Source of the DNA: Escherichia coli
Lineage (GTDB): Bacteria > Pseudomonadota > Gammaproteobacteria > Enterobacterales > Enterobacteriaceae
Assembly: GCF_003018235.1 (NCBI RefSeq)
Contig: NZ_CP027437.1
Reading direction: 5' to 3' (one strand)
DNA: 64,000 bases
A program made the position numbers and the translations under genes. Below the pieces are notes generated by a model that was not told where the DNA came from, did not search any database, and saw only the letters and a list, made by a program, of their open reading frames with translations. This document shows, piece after piece, positions 3,143 through 27,120 of the stretch (the first letter of the stretch is position 1; every line of letters starts with the position of its first letter).

Positions 3143-3333
3143 GGTACTCCTCGGCTTGATGCACCGATCGTGACGCAAAATTCACTTTGATACAAGGAGG
3201 GTGCTAACCATCAGAATTATCTGGATATCCTGGCGAAGCCGCGTCAGTAACATATGCTGAATAGTGTTAGGCGTTAATTTTAGCCTGTTAATCAATACTA
3301 TTAAGATTTATTAATCGCTTTAAGGAGAAGATG

Positions 3334-3561
3334 ATGAAAAAGACTGCCGCAATTATTTCTGCCTGTATGCTGACTTTTGCCCTGAGCGCCTGTTCCGGTT
3401 CGAACTATGTGATGCACACCAATGACGGACGTACCATCGTCTCTGACGGCAAACCACAGACTGATAACGATACCGGTATGATTTCGTATAAAGACGCTAA
3501 TGGCAACAAACAGCAGATCAACCGTACCGACGTGAAAGAGATGGTCGAACTGGATCAGTAA
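3334..3561 (+). CDS. ygdI: Small lipoprotein (DUF903 family)
   Basis: 75-aa ORF with signal peptide and lipobox LSAC; tandem ATG, second one chosen; located between csdA and gcvB. Confidence 0.8.
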
Positions 3562-20329: not shown

Positions 20330-21178
20330 TTATTGCCGAACCAGTCTTGTGGTCGATGGGACAAAATCGCTATTACTGCGCCACGGGTTAATGTCCAGAC
20401 CGCCACGACGGGTATAACGTGCGTAAACGCTCAATTTCTCTGGCTGGCAGAAGCGTAACAGGTCATTAAAGATGCGTTCCACGCACTGTTCGTGGAACTC
20501 GTTGTGATGACGGAAAGAAACCAGGTAACGCAGCAGTTTTTCTCTGTCAATTTGGCGTCCACGATACTGAATTTGGATCGATCCCCAATCTGGTTGATGG
20601 GTGATCAGGCAATTTGATTTCAGCAGGTGGCTGACGAGCGTCTCTTCTACTACTTTTTCGCCACTGGTGGCATTCTCCAGATAGTCAGTAGTGAATTCAT
20701 AGTTATCGATAGTGATATCCTGGTCATCAATGCAAGTGCCATTGAAATGACCTATCGGTTGGCCTTCCAGATCATCAAGACGATATAACGCCACGCTAAC
20801 CTTACCCTGAGCGCAAGTGCTTAAGTCGCGCTCCAGCGTCTGGCGCACCTCATCCCAGTTATTAAAACGCGTCTGGTTAAAACTGTTGAGATAGAGCTTA
20901 AAACTCTTCGACTCAATCAGATTTGCGCTGGTGTAATCAAGTGCAACATGACCGACGGCGACCTGCGGCAAACCTTTCGCATTCAGCCAGGAAAGTTCAT
21001 ACAGCGTCCAGATATCCGTACCGTGAAAAGGCAGGTTATCCGCTTTCAGACCCAGCGGATCGCGATTCAGACTACGTGGAACGCCTTGCAGTAGGCTGGC
21101 GTCATAGGTATCCCGGTAATCGGTTGATTTTCCAAGAGTCAGGCCCGCAAGTGCCTGATGGTTTGCATAAGAAGACAT
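20330..21178 (-). CDS. queF: NADPH-dependent 7-cyano-7-deazaguanine (preQ0) reductase
   Basis: 282-aa ORF of the two-domain QueF type. Confidence 0.92.
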
Positions 21179-21245
21179 GTTTCACCGTCATAAACCAGAT
21201 AAACTAAACGACAAGTGTATCTGGTTTAAGTGAAGAGAGAAATTA

Positions 21246-21791
21246 GTGGACGATTTGACCGCACAAGCCCTGAAAGATTTTACTGCACGCTACTGCGATG
21301 CGTGGAATGAAGAGCATAAAAGCTGGCCGTTGAGTGAGGAACTGTACGGCGTTCCTTCACCGTGCATTATTTCAACCACCGAAGACGCCGTATACTGGCA
21401 ACCCCAGCCGTTTACCGGGGAACAAAATGTAAACGCGGTTGAACGCGCTTTTGATATTGTGATACAACCCACAATTCATACCTTTTATACGACTCAGTTT
21501 GCCGGGGATATGCACGCGCAGTTTGGCGATATTAAACTGACATTGCTGCAAACCTGGAGTGAAGACGACTTCCGTCGGGTGCAGGAAAATCTGATTGGTC
21601 ATCTGGTGACTCAGAAAAGGCTAAAACTGCCGCCCACGCTATTTATCGCGACGCTGGAAGAAGAGTTAGAGGTGATCTCGGTGTGTAATCTCTCCGGTGA
21701 AGTGTGCAAAGAGACGCTGGGAACACGTAAACGGACGCATTTAGCCTCAAATCTTGCGGAATTCCTTAATCAACTTAAGCCTCTTCTGTAA
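21246..21791 (+). CDS. syd: SecY-interacting protein Syd
   Basis: 181-aa ORF starting at GTG 21246. Confidence 0.9.
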
Positions 21792-21810
21792 TCCAAATAC
21801 CCCATCTGGT

Positions 21811-21828
21811 TGTGAGAGATCTCTTACA
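21811..21828. promoter_or_regulatory. UvrY (BarA/UvrY two-component response regulator) binding palindrome upstream of csrB
   Basis: Perfect 18-bp inverted repeat TGTGAGAGATCTCTTACA about 175 bp upstream of the csrB start; this is the type of site described for UvrY/SirA at csrB. Confidence 0.6.
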
Positions 21829-22001
21829 GACTCTGTAGGAGATCGCCAGGAAATAAGCGAATACTTAAAAAGATAAGAATCGTTATTTTCATTTAAAATC
21901 AATATATTGCTTGTCAATTCTTAACTTTCATATGAAATTTTCCTTAAGGCATTGTCTGTAAGCGCCTTGTAAGACTTCGCGAAAAAGACGATTCTATCTT
22001 C

Positions 22002-22367
22002 GTCGACAGGGAGTCAGACAACGAAGTGAACATCAGGATGATGACACTTCTGAAGGACACACCAGGATGGTGTTTCAGGGAAAGGCTTCTGGATGAAGCG
22101 AAGAGGATGACGCAGGACGCGTTAAAGGACACCTCCAGGATGGAGAATGAGAACCGGTCAGGATGATTCGGTGGGTCAGGAAGGCTAGGGACACTTCAGG
22201 ATGAAGTATCACATCGGGGTGGTGTGAGCAGGAAGCAATAGTTCAGGATGAACGATTGGCCGCAAGGCCAGAGGAAAAGTTGTCAAGGATGAGCAGGGAG
22301 CAACAAAAGTAGCTGGAATGCTGCGAAACGAACCGGGAGCACTGTGAATACAGTGCTCCCTTTTTTT
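22002..22367 (+). ncRNA. csrB: CsrB regulatory RNA (CsrA-sequestering sRNA)
   Basis: About 365 nt with no long ORF, carrying roughly twenty GGA-containing motifs (I count about 22 by eye, many as CAGGATG), ending in hairpin GGGAGCACTG-TGAATA-CAGTGCTCCC plus T7. The 5' end is placed from my recollection of the csrB sequence. Confidence 0.88.
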
Positions 22368-22412
22368 ATTCCTGCTATCCTTCGCGGCAGTTTTTCTTAT
22401 TGAGGTTGCTTT

Positions 22413-22742
22413 ATGACCACTCATGACCGCGTTCGTCTCCAGCTGCAGGCGCTTGAAGCATTACTGCGTGAACATCAGCACTGGCAAAACGATGAACCCC
22501 AGCCGCATCAATTTAACAGTACCCAACCGTTCTTTATGGACACCATGGAACCACTGGAGTGGTTGCAGTGGGTGCTGATCCCGCGAATGCACGATTTGTT
22601 AGATAACAACCAGCCGTTACCGGGCGCTTTTGCCGTCGCACCCTATTATGAAATGGCGCTGGCGACGGACCACCCGCAACGCGCGCTTATTCTGGCTGAG
22701 CTGGAAAAACTGGATGCTCTTTTTGCGGATGATGCGAGCTAA
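22413..22742 (+). CDS. yqcC: DUF446 family protein
   Basis: 109-aa ORF directly upstream of and coupled to truC. Confidence 0.85.
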   Translation: MTTHDRVRLQLQALEALLREHQHWQNDEPQPHQFNSTQPFFMDTMEPLEWLQWVLIPRMHDLLDNNQPLPGAFAVAPYYEMALATDHPQRALILAELEKLDALFADDAS

Positions 22743-23524
22743 TGCTGGAAATACTCTATCAGGATGAATGGCTGGTTGCGGTAAATAAACCCTCCGGCTG
22801 GCTGGTTCACCGCAGCTGGATGGATCGCGACGAGAAAGTAGTGGTCATGCAAACCGTGCGTGACCAGATAGGCCAGCATGTGTTTACTGCTCATCGTCTG
22901 GACCGACCAACTTCTGGTGTGTTGTTGATGGGATTATCCAGCGAGGCCGGACGGCTGCTGGCACAACAGTTTGAACAGCACCAAATCCAGAAACGTTACC
23001 ATGCGATTGTGCGCGGCTGGTTGATGGAAGAAGCAGTTCTGGATTATCCACTGGTGGAAGAACTGGACAAAATCGCTGATAAATTTGCCCGCGAAGATAA
23101 AGGCCCACAGCCAGCAGTGACGCATTATCGCGGTCTGGCGACCGTAGAAATGCCGGTAGCGACCGGACGTTACCCGACCACGCGCTACGGCCTGGTGGAA
23201 CTGGAGCCGAAAACCGGACGTAAGCACCAGCTCCGTCGCCATCTTGCCCATTTGCGCCACCCGATTATTGGCGACAGCAAACATGGTGATTTACGCCAGA
23301 ATCGCAGCGGTGCTGAACATTTTGGCCTTCAGCGGTTAATGCTGCATGCCAGTCAGTTGTCATTGACGCATCCTTTTACTGGCGAGCCGCTGACTATTCA
23401 CGCGGGCCTGGACGACACCTGGATGCAGGCGTTATCACAATTTGGCTGGCGGGGTCTGCTTCCTGAAAATGAAAGGGTTGAGTTCAGTGCGCCATCGGGT
23501 CAGGATGGAGAGATAAGTTCCTAA
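22742..23524 (+). CDS. truC: tRNA pseudouridine(65) synthase
   Basis: 260-aa ORF, RluA family (motif [12 protein letters not shown]). Confidence 0.9.
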
Positions 23525-23541
23525 TCCAGGGAGAAAACGGT

Positions 23542-23991
23542 ATGGCGGAAATTGGTATTTTTGTCGGCACTATGTACGGAAATTCGCTGTTAGTGGCGGA
23601 AGAAGCGGAAGCAATTCTGACCGCGCAGGGCCACAAAGCAACGGTATTTGAAGATCCTGAATTAAGCGACTGGCTGCCCTATCAGGATAAGTATGTTCTG
23701 GTGGTTACGTCCACGACCGGGCAGGGCGACCTTCCTGATAGCATTGTGCCGCTCTTTCAGGGAATCAAAGATACCCTGGGCTTCCAGCCGAATCTGCGTT
23801 ATGGCGTGATTGCGCTCGGCGACAGTAGTTATGTGAATTTCTGCAATGGCGGCAAACAGTTCGATGCCTTGTTGCAGGAACAGAGCGCTCAGCGGGTTGG
23901 CGAAATGCTGTTGATTGACGCCAGTGAGAACCCGGAACCGGAAACGGAATCAAATCCGTGGGTCGAACATTGGGGCACGCTGTTGTCCTGA
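23542..23991 (+). CDS. yqcA: Flavodoxin-like protein
   Basis: 149-aa ORF with a flavodoxin fold signature ([11 protein letters not shown]). Confidence 0.88.
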
Positions 23992-24044
23992 TATGTTCAG
24001 CGAGCGGTAAATGCCGTTTTAGCGGTGCTGAATCGAATCTTTTC

Positions 24045-24100
24045 AGGCAAATGCCAGTAAAAACTGCTTCATAGCGCGGATTTTTACTGGCGTTTGCCTG
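24045..24100 (+). other. Long inverted repeat / stable stem-loop in the yqcA-gudP intergenic region
   Basis: Arms CAGGCAAATGCCAGTAAAAA (24045-24063) and TTTTTACTGGCGTTTGCCTG (24081-24100) pair over about 19 bp with one G-U position, loop about 17 nt; no U-tract follows. Confidence 0.4.
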
Positions 24101-24425
24101 GAGTCAAGCGATCCATTTCATACTCTTCTTTATTTCTTCGTTTTAACCCTTCCTTTCTTGTTCTTGTTTTCATTTCCGTGAAGTGGATTCCACCGTCCAG
24201 GGCTAATGCCAAAATCGGGCCTCATTGAACGCATTAATGTTGTGTTGTTGCACGGTGAGCCGCTATGGCGCGCTTTTTATACTGCTATTGCCAGATATAA
24301 ACACGCGCCGTATTCGGCGAACGACCTATAAAAACGGCAAAAAACACCCTACGTCACCTCTGATTTCCTGGCGATGTCGCAGTCCAGAGTGAGCGTGGCT
24401 AACGCGAATTTTCAGGAGTGCAACA

Positions 24426-25778
24426 ATGAGTTCTTTAAGTCAGGCTGCGAGCAGTGTGGAAAAACGCACAAATGCTCGTTACTGGATAGTGGTGATGTTG
24501 TTTATCGTCACATCCTTCAACTACGGCGACCGCGCTACGCTCTCTATCGCCGGTTCGGAAATGGCCAAAGATATCGGCCTTGATCCTGTGGGAATGGGCT
24601 ATGTGTTCTCTGCCTTCTCATGGGCTTATGTTATCGGGCAGATCCCTGGTGGTTGGTTGCTGGATCGTTTTGGTTCAAAACGCGTCTACTTCTGGTCGAT
24701 CTTTATCTGGTCGATGTTTACCTTGCTGCAAGGTTTCGTCGATATTTTTAGTGGATTCGGCATTATCGTTGCCCTGTTTACGCTGCGCTTCCTGGTCGGG
24801 CTTGCTGAAGCGCCATCTTTCCCCGGTAACAGTCGCATTGTAGCGGCCTGGTTTCCGGCGCAGGAAAGGGGAACGGCGGTGTCGATTTTTAACTCCGCCC
24901 AATACTTCGCAACGGTGATCTTCGCGCCGATTATGGGCTGGCTGACGCATGAAGTGGGCTGGTCACACGTCTTCTTCTTTATGGGCGGTCTGGGCATTGT
25001 CATCAGCTTTTTCTGGCTGAAAGTCATCCACGAGCCAAATCAACATCCGGGTGTAAATCAGAAAGAGCTGGAGTACATCGCGGCGGGTGGCGCGCTGATC
25101 AATATGGATCAGCAAAACACCAAAGTTAAAGTACCGTTCAGCGTGAAGTGGGGGCAGATCAAACAGCTGCTCGGGTCACGGATGATGATCGGCGTTTATA
25201 TCGGTCAGTACTGTATCAACGCCCTGACTTACTTCTTTATTACCTGGTTCCCGGTTTATCTGGTGCAGGCACGCGGGATGTCGATTCTGAAAGCGGGCTT
25301 TGTGGCTTCCGTTCCGGCGGTTTGCGGTTTTATCGGCGGTGTGCTGGGTGGGATTATTTCCGACTGGCTGATGCGCCGCACGGGATCGCTGAACATTGCG
25401 CGTAAAACACCGATCGTAATGGGCATGTTGCTGTCGATGGTGATGGTGTTCTGCAACTACGTCAACGTTGAGTGGATGATCATCGGCTTTATGGCGCTGG
25501 CCTTCTTCGGTAAGGGCATCGGGGCGCTGGGTTGGGCAGTAATGGCAGATACCGCGCCAAAAGAGATCAGCGGTCTTTCCGGTGGCCTGTTCAACATGTT
25601 CGGTAACATTTCTGGCATCGTCACGCCAATCGCAATTGGTTATATCGTTGGCACGACTGGCTCGTTTAATGGGGCGCTGATTTATGTTGGTGTTCATGCC
25701 TTAATCGCGGTACTGAGCTACCTGGTGCTGGTGGGCGATATCAAGCGTATCGAGCTGAAACCTGTTGCGGGGCAATAA
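24426..25778 (+). CDS. gudP: Glucarate/galactarate transporter (MFS, anion:cation symporter family)
   Basis: 450-aa polytopic ORF, first gene of the gud operon. Confidence 0.9.
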
Positions 25779-25779
25779 G

Positions 25780-27120
25780 ATGGCGACACAATCCAGTCCT
25801 GTTATTACTGATATGAAAGTCATTCCGGTGGCCGGGCATGACAGCATGTTGCTTAATATTGGTGGTGCACATAACGCATATTTCACCCGCAATATTGTGG
25901 TACTCACCGATAACGCCGGGCATACCGGTATTGGTGAAGCGCCGGGCGGAGAGGTGATTTATCAAACACTGGTCGATGCTATTCCGATGGTGTTGGGCCA
26001 GGAGATCGCACGACTGAATAAAGTGGTTCAGCAGGTGCATAAAGGTAATCAGGCAGCCGATTTTGATACCTTCGGCAAAGGTGCCTGGACTTTTGAATTG
26101 CGCGTTAATGCCGTGGCGGCGCTGGAAGCCGCCTTGCTTGACCTGCTAGGTAAGGCGCTGAATGTTCCGGTCTGCGAACTGTTAGGGCCAGGCAAGCAAC
26201 GCGATGCTATTACCGTCCTCGGTTATCTGTTTTATATCGGTGATCGGACCAAAACCGATCTTCCTTATCTGGAAAATACGCCGGGCAACCATGAGTGGTA
26301 TCAATTGCGGCATCAGAAAGCCATGAACAGCGAAGCCGTTGTGCGTCTGGCGGAAGCTTCACAGGATCGCTATGGCTTTAAAGATTTCAAACTTAAGGGC
26401 GGCGTGTTACCTGGCGAGCAAGAAATCGACACTGTTCGTGCATTGAAGAAACGCTTCCCGGATGCGCGGATTACCGTTGATCCCAACGGTGCATGGCTGC
26501 TTGATGAAGCCATTTCTTTGTGCAAAGGGCTGAATGATGTTCTTACCTATGCCGAAGATCCATGCGGCGCAGAACAGGGTTTCTCCGGTCGTGAAGTGAT
26601 GGCGGAGTTTCGGCGGGCGACCGGCTTGCCCGTCGCGACTAACATGATCGCCACCAACTGGCGTGAAATGGGTCATGCGGTAATGCTCAATGCAGTAGAT
26701 ATTCCACTTGCCGATCCGCACTTCTGGACGCTTTCCGGTGCAGTCCGCGTGGCGCAGCTTTGCGACGACTGGGGGCTGACCTGGGGCTGTCATTCCAACA
26801 ACCACTTTGATATCTCTCTGGCGATGTTTACCCATGTGGGGGCGGCGGCACCGGGTAATCCTACCGCTATCGATACCCACTGGATTTGGCAGGAGGGAGA
26901 TTGTCGCCTGACCAAAAATCCGCTGGAGATTAAAAACGGAAAAATTGCCGTTCCTGATGCGCCCGGTCTGGGCGTGGAACTGGACTGGGAGCAGGTACAA
27001 AAGGCGCATGAGGCCTATAAACGTCTGCCTGGCGGTGCGCGTAACGACGCGGGCCCGATGCAGTACCTGATCCCCGGCTGGACCTTTGACCGTAAACGTC
27101 CCGTTTTCGGCCGTCATTGA
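25780..27120 (+). CDS. gudX: Glucarate dehydratase-related protein (enolase superfamily)
   Basis: Start placed at ATG 25780 ([17 protein letters not shown]...), 446 aa; paralogous to the next gene. Confidence 0.9.

Follow-up and report, generated by a model that had tools for sequence, protein, structure and literature searches.

The spacer between yqcA and gudP of Escherichia coli carries a long and strongly conserved RNA hairpin. Comparison with related genera indicates that it is most likely the form that a conserved, and often bidirectional, intrinsic terminator has taken in Escherichia. The explanation that we favor, with a probability of roughly 55%, is that this hairpin serves as the 3' end and the insulator of the yqcC-truC-yqcA transcript: a remodelled terminator that would end and protect the message and shield the gudP control region.

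The window that we analyzed is the whole stretch of 64,000 nucleotides from contig NZ_CP027437.1, of which one strand is considered the plus strand. MG1655 coordinates (minus strand) are obtained by subtracting the window position from 2946526, which places the hairpin at 2922426-2922482 of that genome. It begins 52 nt past the yqcA stop codon, on the same strand, and ends 325 nt ahead of the gudP ATG, close to the 55 nt and about 330 nt given in a preliminary description made from the sequence alone. The hairpin is within the yqcA 3' untranslated region, and the inferred start site of gudP is about 190-250 nt further downstream. The 434-bp yqcA-gudP spacer contains no annotated feature in the MG1655 RefSeq record or in a PGAP-annotated K-12 record. 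The literature search found no paper that names both yqcA and gudP, and none of the yqcA papers is concerned with RNA. The parts of the locus are listed in the table.

Features of the yqcA-gudP region, in window coordinates
Feature	Position	Strand	Description
csrB	22011-22370	+	Rfam match, 380.9 bits
yqcC	22413-22742	+	
truC	22742-23524	+	
yqcA	23542-23991	+	flavodoxin; last gene of the co-oriented yqcC-truC-yqcA row
Left flank (L block)	24028-24043	+	conserved; 24028-24035 is CTGAATCG, kept across genera
5' arm of the hairpin	24044-24063	+	CAGGCAAATGCCAGTAAAAA; from sequence, repeat finder and fold; A5 run 24059-24063
CpxR-box-like 15-mer in the 5' arm	24047-24061	+	GCAAATGCCAGTAAA
Hairpin loop	24064-24080	+	17 nt; inner helix CUGC 24064-67 with GCGG 24076-79; bulged A24080
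3' arm of the hairpin	24081-24100	+	TTTTTACTGGCGTTTGCCTG; U5 run 24081-24085; second short U-run GUUUG 24092-24096
CpxR-box-like 15-mer in the 3' arm	24083-24097	-	
Right flank (R anchor)	24103-24125		GTCAAGCGATCCATTTCATAC; invariant TCAAG.GA; conserved, with fixed 71-72 nt spacing
Pyrimidine-rich, G-poor tract	24113-24177	+	directly 3' of the hairpin; putative rut-like Rho loading region
TATACT	24278-24283	+	invariant; inferred -10 element of the gudP promoter
gudP	24426-25778	+	

The sequence and a repeat finder confirmed the location of the long stem-loop and its 17-nt loop as they had been described previously. The stem, for which about 19 bp had been counted, comprises 20 bp, of which 19 are Watson-Crick pairs and one is U.G. 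This sole non-Watson-Crick position, T24052/G24092, is a U.G wobble in the plus-strand RNA and a C/A mismatch on the minus strand. The inner 4-bp helix of the loop is coaxial with the 20 contiguous pairs, which results in a helix of about 24 bp. The base of the stem, which had been described as AT-rich, is in fact GC-rich (CAGGC/GCCTG), and the A/U-rich part is the apical half.

RNAfold gave a strong fold on each strand, as the proposed check of both strands called for, with the plus strand being the more stable. The plus-strand fold has an energy of -45.5 kcal/mol (z = -7.37; none of 200 shuffles was equally stable), and the minus-strand fold has an energy of -38.3 kcal/mol (z = -5.55; again no shuffle was equally stable). 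The most stable 60-nt window in the spacer coincides with the hairpin, at -35 kcal/mol vs. -23 kcal/mol for the runner-up. The structure is real and far beyond chance, and it is the only strong local structure of the yqcA-gudP spacer.

Within the species, the element is nearly universal. The hairpin is found in 5425 of the 5426 complete E. coli genomes, at one place in each, and the 73-nt stretch 24036-24108, which includes it, is at least 99% identical in 4320 of the 5425. A sensitive genome search reported two places, most likely owing to the palindrome matching its own opposite strand. In the five variant or clade sequences inspected, the changes fall in the loop, the flank or the bulge, or are G.U-compatible changes in the arms. 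Among Escherichia clades, the loop is almost wholly rewritten while the arms stay paired, i.e. the loop is the variable part.

No second copy was found in the 64-kb window at up to three mismatches, and no match was found in phage records. The only three records labelled as plasmids that do match are 4.8-4.9 Mb long and are evidently mislabelled chromosomes. With a single copy per genome, no phage match and all plasmid matches being chromosomes, the hairpin is not a REP/BIME, an ERIC or a mobile element. Similar to these repeats, it is an intergenic imperfect palindrome that follows a gene, but it differs from them in being single-copy in each genome. We also take it to bear no resemblance to the REP consensus. 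The earlier judgment that this is not a REP element was hence correct. An Rfam scan of 21000-26000 at E-values up to 1 returned only CsrB (22011-22370) and nothing at the hairpin.

Three other candidate features overlapping the hairpin were considered and set aside. A 7-codon open reading frame (MPVKTAS, 24051-24074), which starts in the 5' arm, extends to 16 codons in Citrobacter and, as judged by eye, loses its start or frame in Salmonella. A 42-residue minus-strand frame (24084-24212), annotated by PGAP in some genomes, is probably spurious, as the sequence of the tract is not kept between genera. A possible minus-strand promoter inside the hairpin (TTGACT-16-AAAAAT) matches at nine of 12 positions, and finding one such match where 0.6 are expected is at chance level.

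The origin of the element was traced in the yqcA neighborhoods of 80 enterobacterial species, in most of which gudP is located next to yqcA. In Escherichia, part of Citrobacter, Salmonella, Silvania, Kosakonia, Phytobacter and Superficieibacter, the spacer contains a module that consists of a left anchor, CTGAATCG, and a right anchor, GTCAAGCGA, 75-76 nt further on, with the hairpin position between them. In Salmonella, this distance is 66 nt because of a 10-nt deletion. An invariant box, TTTTCATTTCCGTGAAG, is located 71-72 nt past the right anchor and is followed by the invariant TGCACGGTGA and the TATACT of the gudP promoter. A left anchor is not recognizable in Raoultella, Atlantibacter and some others, which have nevertheless kept the hairpin position along with the right anchor and the spacing. 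Enterobacter and the C. freundii group have no module and carry REP-like elements in the spacer instead (GCCGGGT...ACCCGGC in Enterobacter). The hairpin element itself has been lost or has degraded in Kosakonia, Phytobacter and Silvania. The preliminary description had stated that a lack of conservation of the inverted repeat in related genomes would speak against it; a hairpin at the same position with retained pairing is found in other Enterobacteriaceae.

The two flanks have different relationships to the hairpin. In the remainder of the L block, AATCTTTT, Escherichia has diverged from the consensus (A/T)GT(T/A)AGC.T. The R anchor lies outside the hairpin proper, and the conserved region upstream of gudP begins with it. 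With its center at 24114.5 and its G, G and A invariant, the R anchor might be read as a CRP site (nGnGA-N6-TCA(C/T)A), a resemblance of sequence only. The literature searched yielded nothing usable on CdaR or CRP sites near gudP/gudT, nor on a Salmonella small RNA there.

Outside Escherichia, the core of the hairpin is a short GC hairpin whose sequence varies, with an A-run ahead of it and a T-run behind it, as in AAAAGCCTTTCATTTGAAAGGGTTTTTAC of Citrobacter, CCCCGCATCTTACGCGGTTTTTT of Raoultella and CCCTTTGCAATAAAGGGTTTTT of Superficieibacter. A terminator is called at this position on both strands in Citrobacter (L008) and on the plus strand in Raoultella (L080), and the Superficieibacter orthologue is likewise terminator-like. 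Our custom scan for a hairpin followed by at least five T in 8 nt gave plus-strand hits in at least 11 lineages and minus-strand hits in five. The arms around the core, AAATGCC-N-GTAAAA and TTTTAC-N'-GGCRTTT, pair with each other.

Other genera have an additional hairpin, CCCTCCC...GGGAGGG, directly past the yqcA stop codon, which Escherichia has lost. As this hairpin is mostly without a plus-strand T-run, the first proper plus-strand terminator downstream of yqcA is the module hairpin in those genera as well. The Escherichia version of the module hairpin has a GC core reduced to 4 bp at most and an outer stem extended by CAGG/CCTG. Of this stem, the four or five pairs at the base are Escherichia-specific, and the helices of the orthologues in Raoultella, Salmonella and elsewhere are much shorter. 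The inner helix of the E. coli loop is a remnant of the GC hairpin of the ancestral terminator. Separately, we observe that the lengthening of the stem in Escherichia is more than a simple barrier to exonucleases requires and might indicate some other function, e.g. one that involves RNase III.

In order to count pairs across genera, the 20 pairs of the E. coli structure were imposed on an alignment of 27 orthologous sequences. With all 27 taken together, RNAalifold gave no consensus fold, as the outer stem is missing in several genera. Of the alignment cells, 67.8% are paired, compared to 31-47% when the 3' partner is slid by one to three columns. The covariation score is 0.160, vs. 0.126 ± 0.012 for shuffled alignments (two of 500 reach 0.160) and at most 0.104 for the slid controls. 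Pair 49-81 is C-G in eight sequences, A-U in seven and U-A in three.

The strand on which the structure is read can be approached in the same way. At pair 45-85, U.G (12 sequences) alternates with U-A (11 sequences) across lineages, and both of these pair only on the plus strand. Within Escherichia, G.U-compatible cells outnumber A.C-compatible cells by 10 to 2, a count that reflects few independent events. The substitution pattern is suggestive of selection for the structure on the plus strand; the sequences are related to each other, and hence these statistics are not decisive.

The E. coli element does not score as a terminator. A plus-strand terminator scan made no call anywhere from yqcA to gudP. 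We also calculated the hairpin-plus-T-tail discriminant of d'Aubenton-Carafa, using modern energy parameters, so that its values are indicative only. All nested hairpin and tail configurations of E. coli have a discriminant of -18 to -60, whereas the inner hairpins of orthologues reach +13.5 (L022), +6.5 (L008), +4.6 (L010), +3.3 (L066) and +3.1 (L074). The full stem has an energy of -36.8 to -45.5 kcal/mol, but as long as the U5 run remains in the hybrid, no more than 4 bp of the hairpin can form, with an energy of -2.8 kcal/mol. The loop is 8-17 nt long.

The U-rich tract of about 7-9 nt that directly follows the stem of an intrinsic terminator is absent in E. coli and present in the orthologues. 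The full stem is followed by GAGTCAAG and the mid-stem by GTTTGCCT. The lack of a U-tract, as stated in the preliminary description, is therefore true of the full extended stem, but leaves out the U5 run which is buried in the 3' arm. Similarly, its statement that this is not a canonical terminator applies to E. coli and does not extend to the terminator-like orthologues of other genera. The element shares with enterobacterial intrinsic terminators the position just downstream of a co-oriented transcription unit and the order of A-run, hairpin and U-run. It differs from them in that its GC hairpin is 4 bp long, its U-run is base-paired and no U-tract trails the stem. Given the negative discriminants and the absence of a plus-strand call, intrinsic termination at this site in E. 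coli is probably weak and inefficient.

The sequence downstream of the hairpin has a peculiar composition. The 65-nt tract 24113-24177 is 85% pyrimidine, contains 18 C and 3 G and has a GC content of 32%. The C/G ratio of the 78 nt at 24100-24177 is 2.5, which is above the 99th percentile of the 64-kb window. This tract is the only AT-rich part of the 325 bp that lead up to gudP; these had been described as AT-rich throughout, but their GC content is 46.5%. C exceeds G in 32 of 32 orthologous tracts, with a median of 19 C vs. 7.5 G, and the ratio is 2 or greater in 28 of the 32. The length of the tract is 64-65 nt in 31 of the 32, and its sequence is not conserved. Such a fixed length suggests a constraint on spacing at the DNA level, from the right anchor to the invariant gudP box, which might act besides a rut function or instead of it.

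Dar and Sorek (2018, PMC6061677) reported that Rho-dependent transcripts of E. coli end precisely after stable stem-loops without U-rich tails, that these stem-loops protect against PNPase and RNase II, that the sequence directly downstream is enriched in C over G and contains rut sites, and that A-tracts are not associated with Rho-dependent ends. Judged by analogy, the E. coli element fits this description feature by feature: the stem-loop is stable, it has no U-rich follow-on and a C-rich, G-poor tract begins directly after it. Unlike the stem-loops of that study (PMC6061677), it has a stem that is longer than typical and an A-run ahead of its apical part, and it is known here from its sequence. 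Neither yqcA nor gudP nor these coordinates appear in the supplementary tables of Adams 2021, TERMITe 2025 or SMRT-Cappable-seq 2018. Low expression, the lack of a dominant RNA end or truncated tables could each account for this, and the absence is uninformative.

These findings are in agreement with the following sequence of events. Between yqcA and the control region of gudP, the ancestor would have had a terminator built from an A-run, a short GC hairpin and a U-run, as many Enterobacteriaceae still do. In the Escherichia lineage, the GC core would have decayed to 4 bp, whereas the complementary arms were kept and lengthened by CAGG/CCUG, with the U-run becoming buried in a helix of about 24 bp. 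The hairpin would act as plus-strand RNA, transcribed by RNA polymerase that is leaving yqcA. Termination at the hairpin itself would be weak at best, either at the internal U5 run or at the GUUUG past the mid-stem. Polymerases that read through would expose the C-rich, G-poor RNA of 24113-24177, on which Rho, as base composition suggests, may load and then terminate transcription before or within the gudP promoter region. The 3'-to-5' exonucleases would trim the RNA to the base of the hairpin, which would then protect the yqcA message. The net result would be a defined yqcA 3' end and a CdaR-controlled gudP promoter that is insulated from upstream transcription.

Four other explanations deserve attention, all of which we find improbable to a similar degree. 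Three of them develop suggestions of the preliminary description, which had named an RNase III or RNase E processing site, an operator for gud regulation and a small RNA. One is that RNase III cleaves the helix of about 24 bp, thus setting the decay of the yqcA mRNA or destroying the read-through RNA directed toward gudP. RNase III needs roughly two helical turns of double-stranded RNA, and the 20 contiguous pairs with the coaxial 4-bp helix supply the near-perfect duplex of about 20 bp or more. Furthermore, Escherichia has lengthened the stem while losing the canonical terminator core, and termination alone leaves this lengthening unexplained. However, the long duplex is not the conserved feature of the element, with the orthologues of Raoultella, Salmonella and other genera being much shorter. 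We regard cleavage by RNase III as unlikely; it is nevertheless compatible with the role of the hairpin as a 3' end and insulator.

Equally unlikely, in our estimate, is that the hairpin is a functionless relic, i.e. the palindrome of a decayed terminator that persists because of low divergence within Escherichia. The poor terminator score of the E. coli version would be expected of a relic, and so would the loss or degradation of the element in Kosakonia, Phytobacter and Silvania and the presence of REP elements in its place in Enterobacter. However, the arms have stayed paired among Escherichia clades whose loops are heavily substituted, the stem has been extended rather than eroded, and the pairing exceeds that of both the slid and the shuffled controls.

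Somewhat less probable still is that the hairpin is the terminator of a small RNA, which would be transcribed from a promoter of its own or else arise by processing of the yqcA 3' UTR, and which would use the L block as its base-pairing seed. The sequence of the L block is more conserved across genera than the hairpin. In the other genera, the yqcA-adjacent GC hairpin is mostly without a plus-strand T-run, so the L block is part of a long 3' UTR that ends at the module terminator. In Salmonella and some Citrobacter, the L block is complementary to the gudP ribosome-binding region, with duplexes of -22 to -26 kcal/mol, and the gudP site ranks between 1st and 18th among about 1,600-2,150 windows per locus. 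This complementarity is absent in E. coli (z = -0.1 to -0.9), where the L block has diverged, and a small RNA that pairs with gudP was rejected for this species. In addition, no convincing -35/-10 pair was seen upstream by eye and none was called by a promoter scan, the hairpin has no Rfam match, and the U-run is sequestered in the E. coli stem, which leaves no free U-tail of the Hfq type, whereas it is free in the orthologues. The gudP ribosome-binding sequence is also conserved in loci in which the L block has been lost (L010 and L021).

The same complementarity raises a related and similarly doubtful possibility that the L block and the hairpin form a riboregulator of the neighboring gudP gene, acting either in trans, as a small RNA derived from the 3' UTR and ending at this hairpin, or in cis. 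In Salmonella and Citrobacter, a loop-like L block, UCGUGUUAGC, is flanked by CUGAA/UUCRG and is complementary to the gudP ribosome-binding region GCUAACRCGA...UUCAGGAG. A riboregulator acting in cis would silence gudP translation on read-through RNA, and only the transcripts from the CdaR-dependent promoter would be translated. On this view, the pairing would have been lost and the hairpin remodelled in Escherichia. An origin of the upstream module as a duplication of the gudP leader was also considered and rejected, as the support for it is uneven and no more than modest (z between -1.1 and 3.7); the distal segment is missing from E. coli, and this idea therefore has no bearing on the hairpin. 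As a side observation, the module copy and the gudP-leader copy co-vary at the level of clades.

The least probable of these explanations, and one we consider very unlikely, is that the arms are tandem CpxR boxes (GTAAA-N5-GTAAA), an inverted pair of which would bind two phosphorylated dimers of CpxR, or of another OmpR-family protein, and modulate gudP. A genome-wide PSSM screen listed two putative CpxR boxes for gudP, GCAAAtgccaGTAAA (-365, score 11.12) and TTTACtggcgTTTGC (-329, score 9.68) (PMC9600279, Table S4), which map exactly to 24047-24061 and 24083-24097, respectively. By qRT-PCR, gudP mRNA was 0.42-fold in cpxA24 and 1.91-fold in a cpxA deletion (PMC9600279). Each arm is one mismatch off the tandem consensus. 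However, the boxes are a prediction whose two scores are among the lowest in that table; the main text names gudP in two tables only, and we found no binding assay for gudP. The change of gudP upon NlpE overexpression was not significant (PMC9600279).

Sites with at most one mismatch to the CpxR consensus occur seven times in the 64-kb window, vs. 3.5 times expected by chance, and the A-run and the T-run of a bidirectional terminator yield GTAAA/TTTAC unaided. The first pentamer of the left box is conserved only in Escherichia, Citrobacter and Superficieibacter. Both arms resemble CpxR boxes to within one mismatch, but they differ from them in being inverted, in being complementary to each other including the spacers and in their location far upstream of the promoter, about 190-240 nt from the inferred gudP start site. 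Moreover, substitutions in the N5 spacer of one box are matched by pairing substitutions in that of the other (TGCCA/TGGCG, TGCCT/AGGCA and TGCCC/GGGCG), which CpxR binding does not need. Such covariation favors a structure over a sequence that is recognized by a protein. Motif scans should be treated with caution here, as the two reported CpxR boxes of gudP are the two strands of one RNA hairpin.

In summary, the unannotated hairpin between yqcA and gudP is real and conserved. It belongs to an ordinary kind of element and will not surprise a specialist. If it is the remodelled terminator that we propose, it would fill an unannotated gap in the map of E. coli K-12 (MG1655 2922426-2922482, minus strand) and would provide a clear example of an intrinsic terminator that has turned into a long hairpin without a U-tract and has become coupled to a Rho loading tract. 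It would also explain what ends the yqcC-truC-yqcA message and what shields the inducible gudPXD promoter from upstream transcription.

Judged by its sequence, the conserved right flank of the hairpin in the yqcA-gudP spacer (the right anchor) resembles a CRP site of the form nGnGA-N6-TCACA, and in Raoultella it reads AGTGA-N6-TCACA. Literature support for a CRP reading of this element was looked for, and none was found. The anchor lies upstream of the next invariant box at a constant distance of 71-72 nt.

Two invariant blocks and the TATACT hexamer delimit the conserved gudP control region, and they are presumably the sites of CdaR and RNA polymerase. In Citrobacter (L008), the promoter scan called the gudP promoter as GTGAGA-17-TATACT. 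A second inverted repeat, with a folding energy of -23 kcal/mol in a 60-nt window, flanks the -10 and start region.

Coordinates of the features in the window and of paired segments in related loci (L numbers denote the yqcA neighbourhoods of 80 enterobacterial species)
Feature	Position	Strand	Remark
CsrB small RNA gene	22011-22370	same as yqcC	just upstream of yqcC; Rfam RF00018, 380.9 bits
L block	24028-24050		conserved, directly 5' of hairpin; CTGAATCGTGTTAGCT in Salmonella and several Citrobacter
Mini-ORF MPVKTAS	24051-24074		ATG CCA GTA AAA ACT GCT TCA TAG; start in 5' arm, stop in loop
WP_001296328.1	24084-24212	minus	42-aa 'hypothetical protein', TTG start; PGAP, some E. coli genomes
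Right anchor	24103-24125		GTCAAGCGATCCATTTCATAC; TCAAG.GA invariant across genera
Invariant block	24167-24183		TTTTCATTTCCGTGAAG; gudP control region
Invariant block	24249-24258		TGCACGGTGA; gudP control region
Second inverted repeat	24264-24312		TATGGCGCGCTTTT / AAACACGCGCCGTA
TATACT	24278-24283		inferred -10 of gudP; gudP control region
Terminator-like site	24319-24306	minus	
L block/gudP complementarity	L023:3045-3055 vs L023:3402-3412		also L008, L022, L024
Leader-repeat pair	L024:2982-2995 vs 3287-3300		also L074
Leader-repeat pair	L051:3006-3020 vs 3326-3340		

Two small ORFs overlap the hairpin. WP_001296328.1, the stop of which falls within the 3' arm, is probably spurious because the tract that it spans shows no sequence conservation from one genus to the next. 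The MPVKTAS mini-ORF extends to 16 codons in Citrobacter (MPVKAFHLKGFLLAFS); Salmonella no longer has its start or its frame.

The L block, which is the conserved left flank of the hairpin, shows complementarity in Salmonella and several Citrobacter to a stretch of the gudP mRNA (AGCTAACRCGA...TTCAGGAG) that lies shortly before the Shine-Dalgarno sequence and extends into it. Duplex energies are -22 to -26 kcal/mol, and in each locus this site ranks first or close to first. This complementarity is absent in E. coli, where the L block instead holds a direct copy of the gudP ribosome-binding stretch, CGAAT(C)TTTTCAGG (24033-24047 vs 24403-24416).

In genera that retain it, the stretch from the yqcA-proximal hairpin to the L block directly repeats the beginning of the gudP leader (TGCCAGT...AACGACC), and the two copies are ~305-320 bp apart. 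They co-vary by clade, scoring 20.4 within a genome vs 16.6 across genomes. The repeat may go back to an ancient duplication whose copies evolved in concert, or both copies could bind a common factor. E. coli is without the distal copy.

The 2.5 kb that follow yqcA contain no gudP in Escherichia albertii (L017), Citrobacter L012, L015, L016 and L020, L056, Pluralibacter (L057), Buttiauxella (L068) and Yokenella (L070), and therefore these species have either undergone a rearrangement at the yqcA-gudP junction or lost gudP.

The inferred 5' UTR of gudP is ~135 nt long (~24290-24425) and strongly conserved across genera, for example in the stretches ACGTCA.CTCTGAT and CCCTAC.GGTTGTGC.GTTCAGA.TGA.CGT.GC. 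It has no match in Rfam. Such a leader suggests that gudP is under post-transcriptional control.
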